Origin: a virus
Lineage: Duplodnaviria > Heunggongvirae > Uroviricota > Caudoviricetes
Strand: one strand, 5' to 3'
Virus record (IMG/VR): IMGVR_UViG_2541047788_000006
Length of the DNA stretch: 48,822 nucleotides
Under the pieces are notes generated by a model. It saw nothing but the letters and a program-made list of their open reading frames with translations. It was not told the DNA's origin and searched no databases. Shown piece by piece: positions 36,346 through 40,224 of this stretch. Position 1 is the stretch's first letter; each line of letters opens with the position of its first letter. Made by a program: the position numbers and the translations under genes.

Positions 36346-37467
36346 AGCCTGCTTCTCCTTGCCTTTCGGCTCGTAAGAGGCTAACCTACATGTGTCTAGC
36401 ATGAAATTGGCCTCAGATTAATGTTAAGCGTCTTGCAGGACGCGTAATGTTAACTGGGGCTTTTCTCTATCTGCCTTTGGTGTTCATGCCCGAGGCAGAT
36501 AGCCTCAAGCACCCGCAGCCATTCTACTTAACTACCGTTACCTCGCCAATATGAAATCAGTCAGAAAGGCGATCCATAAGAACAATAGCAAGACAATAAA
36601 TCGCCATTACAGCCGTAATAGCCAGCGCACATTTGAGAACCAGCACCACAACCTCCTGTATTGGACGTAGACCAGTCCTGATGAATATGAGGCTGTCTCG
36701 TCAGTGATTCAATACAACTATTGGGTATAGTTTCTCTGATTTTTTCTGTGGAAATGGGGCACAACCACTAGTCACCACCAGCACTTCTTTTAATACGCAA
36801 AGTCCGACACAAGCTAACCTTCTAGTCCGCTTTGAGCGAAAAACAGCCATAATTTAGTGCCACGTATATAATGATAGAGCTATTCAAGCTAGCAATTCAC
36901 ATGTAAAAATTCAGAGGGTAGAAGCACATAGTTATAAATGTTGGCTCCATCGACAAATTGCGGTCTCAAGTACATTTATTAATGTTGCCCCCGCATTAAC
37001 AAATCATCAAGGTGACGACATGGACGATATTAATATCAGCCTCGACGAACTTAACACTATTGATTTATCCCCCTTAATCCAGAGTAAGCTGCCAGTTACC
37101 TGCTTTGATATCACAAAGTATCTTTCTAGCCTAGGTGATGGAAGAGCGGAGATAAGACTGCTAACCCATATTTGCGGTTTTCACTTTCGTCCCGAAAATC
37201 CACAGGTACCATTTGGTCCGTGCTTTCAAAGCAGCCAAGGTAGATCTGCAATTCCGGATGACATTAACGGGTTGTCGCTGGAGGTACTTTCTCAATTTTG
37301 CCCGACGATAGAGCTACCCGAACTTCAAGCTCGTATTGCTGATACACTTTGGGTTCGTAAAATTGGTGGAATCCGTTTTCCTTTGCTGGCAGTCCGTGCT
37401 TATTATGCGTCCAGTATAGCTATTATGACATCGCAAGGGACGTGGGTTAGTGCTTTAGAACGCCTAG

Positions 37468-38662
37468 GGAAGGTGCGAACAAGTCCCTGATATGAGATCA
37501 TGTTTGTCATCTGGAGCCATGGAACAGGGTTCATCATGAGTCATCAACTTACCTTCGCCGACAGTGAATTCAGCAGTAAGCGCCGTCAGACCAGAAAAGA
37601 GATTTTCTTGTCCCGCATGGAGCAGATTCTGCCATGGCAAAACATGGTGGAAGTCATCGAGCCGTTTTACCCCAAGGCTGGTAATGGCCGGCGACCTTAT
37701 CCGCTGGAAACCATGCTACGCATTCACTGCATGCAGCATTGGTACAACCTGAGCGATGGCGCGATGGAAGATGCTCTGTACGAAATCGCCTCCATGCGTC
37801 TGTTTGCCCGGTTATCCCTGGATAGCGCCTTGCCTGACCGCACCACCATCATGAATTTCCGCCACCTGCTGGAGCAGCATCAACTGGCCCGCCAATTGTT
37901 CAAGACCATCAATCGCTGGCTGGCCGAAGCAGGCGTCATGATGACTCAAGGCACCTTGGTCGATGCCACCATCATTGAGGCACCCAGCTCGACCAAGAAC
38001 AAAGAGCAGCAACGCGATCCGGAGATGCATCAGACCAAGAAAGGCAATCAGTGGCACTTTGGCATGAAGGCCCACATTGGTGTCGATGCCAAGAGTGGCC
38101 TGACCCACAGCCTGGTCACCACCGCGGCCAACGAGCATGACCTCAATCAGCTGGGTAATCTGCTGCATGGAGAGGAGCAATTTGTCTCAGCCGATGCCGG
38201 CTACCAAGGGGCGCCACAGCGCGAGGAGCTGGCCGAGGTGGATGTGGACTGGCTGATCGCCGAGCGCCCCGGCAAGGTAAGAACCTTGAAACAGCATCCA
38301 CGCAAGAACAAAACGGCCATCAACATCGAATCCATGAAAGCCAGCATCCGGGCCAAGGTGGAGCACCCATTTCGCATCATCAAGCGACAGTTCGGCTTCG
38401 TGAAAGCCAGATACAAGGGGTTGCTGAAAAACGATAACCAACTGGCGATGTTATTCACGCTGGCCAACCTGTTTCGGGCGGACCAAATGATACGTCAGTG
38501 GGAGAGATCTCACTAAAAACTGGGGATAACGCCTTAAATGGCGAAGAAACGGTCTAAATAGGCTGATTCAAGGCATTTACGGGAGAAAAAATCGGCTCAA
38601 ACATGAAGAAATGAAATGACTGAGTCAGCCGAGAAGAATTTCCCCGCTTATTCGCACCTTCC
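37468..38662 (+). mobile_element. IS5 insertion sequence, copy 2 (1195 bp)
   Basis: Inverted repeats GGAAGGTGCGAACAAG (37468..37483) and CTTATTCGCACCTTCC (38647..38662); flanked by a direct 4-bp duplication CTAG (37464..37467 and 38663..38666). Confidence 0.92.
37500..38516 (+). CDS. insH: IS5 transposase (DDE family)
   Basis: 338-aa ORF identical in protein sequence to the copy at 3223..4239. Confidence 0.9.
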
Positions 38663-40224
38663 CTAGAGCGTGCGCTTAGGCTGTGTTGTTTTTTTCGAAA
38701 GAATACTGATTTCAGGGATGAATTTGATCAGCTTTCGGCACATCTACTAGCAGAGTATGAACGTACCAGAGAACAAGGCGATTCACCTTATCCGCTGCGA
38801 CTCCTGCAACTCGATATCGACTGTAAAGTGAGTGAGCCATCTTTTATTGCCCAGGAACTCCTGTTTCTGACAAAAAACTATCTGGCTCAAAAATTATTTT
38901 CATTTGCCGTCGATGCCTGTAAAACCGCAATCACGATTGCGAATAGGTGCTGTGACAGAGATACACAGTTTGAATTCTGGCGGCTTCTTGCCGATACACA
39001 TCTGGAAGAGTCAAAATTCCAAGATGGCGGTATGATTTCGGCAGCCTGCATGCAGAATGCTATTGAAGCACTGGCTAATATTCCAGGAACCCGAATAGAA
39101 CGTCTTGCGCTGTATGAAGAAATGCGTGATTACCAAATCGAATCCCGTCACCAGATGTCTATCCTTCAGTCTCCCCCTCAAGATATTAGTGAGATTGTCC
39201 ATCAAGCCAAGAGTCGGGTAGTCGGAAGAGATATGTTTGATATGGTTTTCAGACTTGCGATGCTGGTCTGTCGGCCAACCAGCATTGAGAGACTTAAGGC
39301 TCAAGCAATAGAACAAAAGGCCAACAGCATAGCTTGGATGTTTGGATCAACACATATTGATCATGAGGGAATGACACTTGCTCGCATACCCGCAGGATTG
39401 GGGATTGATGATGCAAATGGGGCAGTTATTTGGCCCATAATGATGACGAGAATGCGTATCGACCATGAGTTGGCAGTAGCTGGGCAAATTATTCCTGCTA
39501 CAGATGAGATCACAATGAAATATCCAATCTCGGAGGCGTTTTTTCGCGATATGTTCATCAATCATCCCTTCATCCCGTTTGGGCATGAAGAGTTTTTCAT
39601 CAAGGGTATGGTTTGCGGTTTCAATGGAGATTTTATGACGGCATGCCACGTGTTGATTCCCCAGATCGAAAATAGTCTGAGATATGTGGCTAAAATTAAA
39701 GGTGAGGAACCATCGCAGCTTCACGGGGACGGTTCGCAAGAGCGAAATGGACTCAAGGGATTACTAGATAATCCACTGATTATTGAAGCTTTCGGCGTAG
39801 ACATAATTGGCAATCTTCAGGCCTTACTGGTAGATAAAATCTATGGTGATTTACGAAATCAACTAGCTCACGGATATGTGCCTGCCGGTTACTACAATCA
39901 ACCTCCCTGCATTTTTGCATGGTGGCTTGTATTGCACATTCTAATGAACCCTACGGCGAGATACTGGCAAGCCACTTATGGCCAAGAGAGTGAGGCTCAG
40001 ACTTAAAGTGAATAAGTTTACGAAGTTGGCACTTCCGGATGCATGTCCATATGAGTTGAGGCGATTTGGTTAATAAGGTTGAGTGCTGCTGAAATTATTC
40101 GATGTCCGCTTTTGGCACAAAGCGGACAACCACGCCAGATCTACCCTGTGCCATGAAAAATGAGAATGTCAATTCACTCCTGAACTAATGCTTTTTAATC
40201 TAGTAACGTCTAAAATACCTAACA

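Follow-up and report, generated by a model that had tools for sequence, protein, structure and literature searches.

The DUF4209 domain (Pfam PF13910) was placed in the HEPN superfamily by Anantharaman et al. (2013; PMC3710099) as the C6orf70 (ERMARD) family, which was described as mostly bacterial, with a conserved catalytic motif, fusions to TPR repeats and locations in operons related to restriction–modification (R-M). A second point of reference is PDC-S39, a single-gene candidate system in PADLOC; the PDC systems go back to genes found inside BREX, DISARM and type I R-M loci, and they are expressly presented as unvalidated (Payne et al., bioRxiv 2024). In this work, we describe a gene of 595 codons that belongs to both groups and is split by the insertion sequence IS5 in a viral DNA of 48,822 nucleotides (Caudoviricetes; IMG/VR record IMGVR_UViG_2541047788_000006), referred to as the window, which is a Qin-like lambdoid prophage. 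With a probability of roughly 0.6, we read this locus as a copy of a stand-alone, mobile cargo gene that IS5 has recently inactivated, and its intact product as an abortive-infection-type ribonuclease (RNase) composed of DUF7380, TPR and HEPN parts. The HEPN assignment of 2013, the candidacy for defence in PADLOC and the annotation of the intact allele in RefSeq are already known.

When the gene is rebuilt in silico, its 595-amino-acid (aa) product consists of an N-terminal DUF7380, a TPR-like solenoid and a C-terminal DUF4209 (HEPN) domain. Pfam DUF7380 (PF24098) matches residues 4-166 (E 2.1e-34, 119.3 bits against a cutoff of 27), and DUF4209 matches residues 484-573 with 34 bits against a gathering cutoff of 22.3; both domains were found in 40 of 40 diverse homologues. 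The parts of the protein that follow DUF7380 are located in the window as follows:

38667..39148, starting upstream of IS5, plus strand: TPR-like alpha-solenoid, residues ~120-310
39581..40003, plus strand: C-terminal HEPN domain, residues ~455-595
39662..39682, plus strand: helix-1 motif Q482-I-E484-N-S486-L-R488, conserved in homologues
39854..39871, plus strand: HEPN catalytic signature R546-N-Q-L-A-H551, an Rx4H motif with a polar residue after R

The AlphaFold model of the full-length protein, which is of high confidence (predicted local distance difference test score, pLDDT, 90.3), comprises a helical repeat and a HEPN domain only, the latter being an all-alpha, up-and-down helical bundle like that of solved HEPN domains. 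Structural matches include Csm6, AbiA, LsoA and RnlA; fold searches with the whole protein pick up only the central TPR-like solenoid. Sequence and profile searches of the PDB gave no significant relatives, no NCBIfam model matches the protein, and in PHROGs only the unknown-function families 5183 and 31613 do.

An earlier note on this DNA had pointed to the sequence GDLRNQLAHGY as fitting the HEPN Rx4-6H signature, and the domain match and the homologues bear this out. This sequence occupies residues 543-553, with R546 encoded at 39854-39856 and H551 at 39869-39871. In an alignment of 40 sequences reaching down to 24% identity, R546, H551, Q482, E484, S486 and R488 are invariant. Among 259 full-length homologues, R546 is present in 259 and H551 in 258; position 547, which in HEPN domains is usually polar (N, H or D), holds N in 234 sequences and H in 22; in helix-1, Q482 is kept in 255, E484 in 257, S486 in 242 and R488 in 258. 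On two of the points that could have spoken against the earlier proposal, a missing HEPN-like fold and an unconserved motif, the outcome was favorable to it. The same note had found no family to which the protein could be assigned; it is now a member of Pfam DUF4209 and of PDC-S39, and its description as an uncharacterised defence candidate stands. Within DUF7380 (37332..37472 region), four further residues are near-invariant in the same set, namely R105 (255/259), D108 (252/259), Y128 (254/259) and R151 (251/259), and their conservation suggests a second functional site, which might bind a ligand or partner or be catalytic.

The conservation of the HEPN motif also bears on the idea that this domain is a non-catalytic module binding RNA or nucleotides, with the protein acting as a regulator or scaffold. 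Loss of the Rx4-6H motif is typical of inactive HEPN families (PMC3710099). Across the 259 sequences, R and H are near-invariant, as are E484 and R488, and Anantharaman et al. record the catalytic motif of the family as conserved; a non-catalytic role is therefore very improbable.

As for described systems, the closest is PDC-S39, which the protein matches over nearly its full length (residues 43-581 against positions 54-602 of the 615-position profile, E 8.4e-103; a second PDC-S39 model gives E 2.6e-102). The single-gene format is the same and no structural difference was seen, so the protein is a member, with two reservations: PDC-S39 is a candidate system only, and the present copy is broken by IS5. 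With the DUF4209/C6orf70 (ERMARD) family it shares the Rx4H motif and the TPR-like repeats, and bacterial members of this family are predicted to be active and are R-M-associated (PMC3710099). Eukaryotic C6orf70/ERMARD members are described as endoplasmic reticulum (ER)-membrane proteins with a transmembrane segment, whereas the bacterial protein is modelled as all-helical and globular and carries the additional N-terminal DUF7380, with no further Pfam match.

A common design, in which an N-terminal sensor or regulator is followed by a C-terminal HEPN RNase, is found in DS-11 (CBS and HEPN; DefensePredictor, bioRxiv 10.1101/2025.01.08.631726), Csm6, RnlA/LsoA and AbiA. The putative sensor consists here of DUF7380 and TPR, in contrast to CARF, CBS, RT or NRD in those effectors, and searches of Pfam, NCBIfam and PDB sequences revealed no sequence-level relationship to them. 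The HEPN toxins of HEPN/MNT type II toxin–antitoxin systems (PDB 7ae2, 5yep, 8xdj) are proteins of ~130-140 aa that are neutralised by an adjacent MNT nucleotidyltransferase, whereas HEPN ends a 595-aa protein here and neither MNT nor any other conserved neighbour accompanies it. A toxin–antitoxin reading was rejected: no partner gene was found, the neighbours, hokD/sok and DUF977, lie on the opposite strand, and no nucleotidyltransferase is found beside homologues. Two further candidates were set aside: a STAND/Avs-type NTPase with a TPR sensor, as Pfam, NCBIfam and PADLOC scans found no NTPase domain and the model contains only the helical repeat and HEPN; and the lactococcal Abi HEPN families (Abi2/AbiD-F, AbiJ, AbiU2, AbiV), none of which matched, DUF7380, DUF4209 and PDC-S39 being the only hits at E<=1 in Pfam and PADLOC.

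In the literature, DUF4209/PF13910 was found only in the 2013 HEPN paper, and no report of an experiment on DUF4209, DUF7380 or PDC-S39 was found in a search that did not extend to the supplementary tables of DefensePredictor and Rousset et al. The DefensePredictor preprint mentions four validated HEPN systems, three validated systems with haloarchaeal homologues, and TPR in one figure legend; its text does not state whether any validated HEPN system is a DUF4209 protein. Some family member may already have been tested under another name.

The interruption of the gene can be followed to the nucleotide, and involves these features:

37020..37467, plus strand: 5' gene part, codons 1-149 and the first base of codon 150, holding most of DUF7380
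37464-37467: left copy of the target-site duplication CTAG
37468..38662, plus strand: IS5, 1195 bp, in the same orientation as the interrupted gene
37500..38516, plus strand: IS5 transposase open reading frame (ORF), 338 aa
38663-38666: right copy of the target-site duplication CTAG, read directly from the sequence
38667..40006, plus strand: 3' gene part, the remainder of codon 150 through codon 595, plus the stop

The element, the ends of which are the terminal inverted repeats GGAAGGTGCGAA, is an ordinary IS5 of about 1.2 kb with inverted repeats, a DDE transposase and a 4-bp YTAR duplication, and matching sequence is labelled in RefSeq as 'IS5-like element IS5 family transposase'. When 37020..37467 is joined to 38667..40006, a 1788-nt ORF of 595 aa results, which is divisible by 3 and has zero internal stops. 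The earlier note had proposed that two ORFs are parts of one gene and that removal of IS5 with one CTAG copy leads from codon 149 (CTA) into a reconstituted GAG as codon 150; both statements hold. Many E. coli genomes hold an annotated, uninterrupted gene whose 1788 nt are 100.0% identical in DNA to the rebuilt ORF. The gene is carried by 152 of 5,426 complete E. coli genomes, each time at >=99% identity and mostly with an intact ORF, and the IS5 junction of the window was found in none of the 5,426. Because intact alleles are identical and the junction occurs nowhere else among these genomes, the insertion is recent and, within that collection, unique.

In its present state the locus can give rise only to a 156-aa stub of 149 native and 7 IS5-encoded residues, since translation of the 5' part enters IS5 for 7 codons and ends at 37490. 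Read-through out of IS5 is blocked by a TAG at 38664-38666, provided by the right CTAG copy in frame with the 3' part, and the earliest possible restart in the distal part, GTG at 38828, has no Shine-Dalgarno sequence or other ribosome-binding site. The HEPN part is thereby left with no start close to the promoter. The split copy is therefore a null allele and its function is lost in this strain, in agreement with the silencing that had been suspected.

Loss of the gene is not confined to the window. Among ~153 carriers, it was broken independently at least four times: by IS5, by IS1203 near codon 480 in three genomes (strain 720632 and two more, with an identical 3101-bp span in each), by ISEc23 (IS66 family) at ~nt 1589 in strain MEI1-1023, and by a deletion in strain A10 that fuses the first ~576 nt of the gene towards dicB. 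So many disruptions of a single allele might indicate that the intact gene is costly or toxic and that the IS5 insertion was selected, as opposed to neutral decay of prophage cargo. Weighing against selected loss, the ORF is intact in about 90% of carriers, the gene is under purifying selection, insertion-sequence hits are commonplace in prophages, and IS5 is active in this strain, where an invertase gene of the same prophage is split by another copy identical to the first. With most carriers intact and this second copy present, neutral activity of insertion sequences is enough as an explanation, and selection for the loss seems rather unlikely.

The second IS5 lies on the minus strand at 3077..4271 and is 100% identical to the copy in the 595-aa gene. 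It splits a serine recombinase/DNA-invertase gene, the flanks of which are at 2620..3076 and 4276..4410, and has its own target duplication, TTAA, on each side. The two copies, in inverted orientation, bracket ~33 kb of the prophage; the matching target duplications kept at each of them imply that no inversion between the copies has happened.

The gene occupies a slot in the prophage that other genes use as well, between the following neighbours:

36190..36514, minus strand: hokD/sok, left neighbour of the gene, with an Rfam sok match
36845..40103, plus strand: cargo cassette in the hokD–DUF977 slot, 2060 bp without IS5, delimited by BLAST against prophages with other cargo there
40225 onward, minus strand: DUF977, replication and cro genes, right neighbours of the gene

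In BLAST comparisons with prophages carrying different cargo, the common flanks stop at 36840-36844 of the window and start again at 40094-40113. These breakpoints define a cassette of 2.06 kb, which consists of 175 bp upstream, the gene and ~100 bp downstream. Transcribed from the plus strand, the gene is antisense to the early-right operon of the prophage and opposed to the phage genes on both sides, as the earlier note had stated; the moron position that it had assigned is likewise borne out by the variable cargo of the slot between hokD and the replication genes. The same gene order, with the gene intact, is annotated in E. coli ATCC 25922, the allele of which (DR76_RS17050) is 99.8% identical; E. 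coli 118UI has an intact allele with identical DNA. Other occupants of the slot in E. coli (RefSeq) are a 310-aa 'HEPN domain-containing protein', a 'P-loop ATPase, Sll1717 family', a DUF5677 protein, QueH, an alpha/beta hydrolase, a SAM methyltransferase, and DUF7167 and hypothetical proteins. The interval thus behaves as a moron or cargo hotspot, and it may be a defence/moron hotspot; one of three occupants tested against PADLOC matched, weakly. No description of this interval as a hotspot was found in the literature.

A hairpin with a 9-bp stem (40104..40127; GTCCGCTTT-TGGCAC-AAAGCGGAC) is found where the cassette ends on the right, ~100 nt downstream of the stop codon of DUF977 on the minus strand. 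Its sequence is common to other prophages, which makes it a feature of the backbone and not of the cassette; it could function as a terminator or serve as a landmark for recombination when cargo is exchanged. Elsewhere in the window, Rfam matches at gathering level identified the DicF small RNA (sRNA; 44016..44067, plus strand), two cspA-type thermoregulator leaders of prophage cold-shock gene paralogues (29498..29883 and 32394..32786, minus strand) and the IS009 sRNA (4541..4739, minus strand), all of which are ordinary features of Qin-like prophages.

Two features precede the gene within the cassette:

36845..37019, plus strand: AT-rich upstream region, 175 bp, presumed to hold the gene's own promoter and 5' leader
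36979..36999: palindrome TTAATG-N9-CATTAA, real but at chance level

The GC content of the upstream region is 0.377, against 0.493 for the window, which agrees with the AT-richness noted before. A block at ~36900-36932 (ACATGTAAAAAT ... GGGTAGAAGCACATAG), ~90-120 nt 5' of the start codon, is kept in the loci of two orthologues, an 81% identical one in Citrobacter and a 68% identical one on an IncFII contig, while the DNA around it has diverged; the two parts of this block could represent the -10 region of the cassette promoter and the 5' leader. A sigma-70 consensus scan of the plus strand 5' of the gene gave no strong match, so that promoter function is inferred, and a terminator scan found none after the gene. 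The palindrome to which the earlier note had drawn attention does exist, but its significance did not survive: the window contains 229 perfect inverted repeats of 6 bp spaced by 3-12 nt, a density of 4.7 per kb, and the palindrome is not conserved in the upstream DNA of either the 81% or the 68% orthologue. A role as an operator was rejected on these grounds.

Outside this prophage, the gene belongs to a large and widely distributed family. Searched with a profile, 1.84 billion cluster representatives yielded 5,406 clusters at E<=1e-10, and the best 150 of these are all ~600 aa long and match nearly end to end. At 50% identity the family counts thousands of clusters, and its members extend to cyanobacteria and to a plasmid of a haloarchaeon. 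A 97% identical allele is found on conjugative IncFIB/FII plasmids of K. pneumoniae, where it adjoins umuDC and a leading-region antirestriction gene and also lies near a group II intron and IS110. The 81% allele is located at the end of a Citrobacter prophage. These two and the IncFII-contig allele, the closest ones outside E. coli, all adjoin umuD/umuC-type genes (peptidase S24 and Y-family polymerase). In V. cholerae, homologues with 45% identity make up a small islet flanked by tauE and carB, and more were seen in Pseudomonas, cyanobacteria and a Natrinema plasmid. Among the E. coli, Klebsiella-plasmid, Citrobacter and IncFII-contig alleles, dN/dS is 0.12-0.18, a range that indicates purifying selection. 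In a P2-like phage, the gpA–gpQ interval holds a homologue of 643 aa (PDC-S39, E 8.5e-85) with the motif kept as LRHKLAHG; this interval was shown by Rousset et al. (PMC9122126) to be a hotspot for anti-phage systems. Inspection of the neighbours in E. coli, V. cholerae, Pseudomonas, cyanobacteria, Citrobacter, the IncFII contig and the Klebsiella plasmid revealed no conserved partner gene; the V. cholerae homologue is followed by a 160-aa ORF and a cyanobacterial homologue by a PIN gene, neither being conserved elsewhere.

Such carriage raises the question of the opponent against which the protein is directed. Its presence on conjugative IncF plasmids beside umuDC and a leading-region antirestriction gene, on an IncFII contig and at a prophage end, as well as next to the hok/sok addiction module in the window, would suit an RNase serving conflict between elements or their maintenance, by addiction or by exclusion of plasmids and rival prophages, instead of defence against lytic phages. 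Against this, no cognate antitoxin or partner gene occurs in any context, and an anti-phage role is indicated both by the recovery of the family through its embedding in BREX, DISARM and R-M loci and by its occupation of the P2 old/tin hotspot. We consider the inter-element role plausible, though unlikely as the sole function; the two roles overlap and are not mutually exclusive. The anti-phage reading, which the earlier note had put forward as a candidate prophage defence or abortive-infection gene, is supported by the PDC-S39 match, the HEPN motif and the relatives in the P2 hotspot.

On the abortive-infection reading, the lysogen would express the intact protein from a promoter within the cassette, in antisense to the prophage's early-right operon, and would presumably keep it inactive. 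The DUF7380/TPR region would hold HEPN in this state until a cue from an infecting phage or another invading element is sensed. By analogy with other HEPN enzymes, in which a dimeric composite site gives metal-independent RNase activity, two HEPN domains might then pair so that their Rx4H motifs make up one active site, and cutting of RNA from the cell, the phage or both could lead to growth arrest or aborted infection, by which the prophage and its host would be protected. A broader proposal, to which we give somewhat less than even odds, is that PDC-S39 proteins in general are single-polypeptide abortive-infection RNases, in which DUF7380 and TPR sense a phage cue and release HEPN, that they can serve as a model for ERMARD, and that the hokD–DUF977 interval is a hotspot of defence cargo like those of P2 and P4.

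Since the copy described here is dead, it matters little to its strain, which has lost one candidate immunity gene, and its value is that of a pointer. Some 150 sequenced E. coli, among them the standard strain ATCC 25922, offer an easily available intact allele that can be assayed directly. The family is large and its catalytic residues are conserved; validating or rejecting PDC-S39 would also inform on the HEPN family that includes human ERMARD. If the broader proposal were true, PDC-S39 proteins, as bacterial relatives of C6orf70/ERMARD, would offer a tractable way into what that human protein does biochemically.

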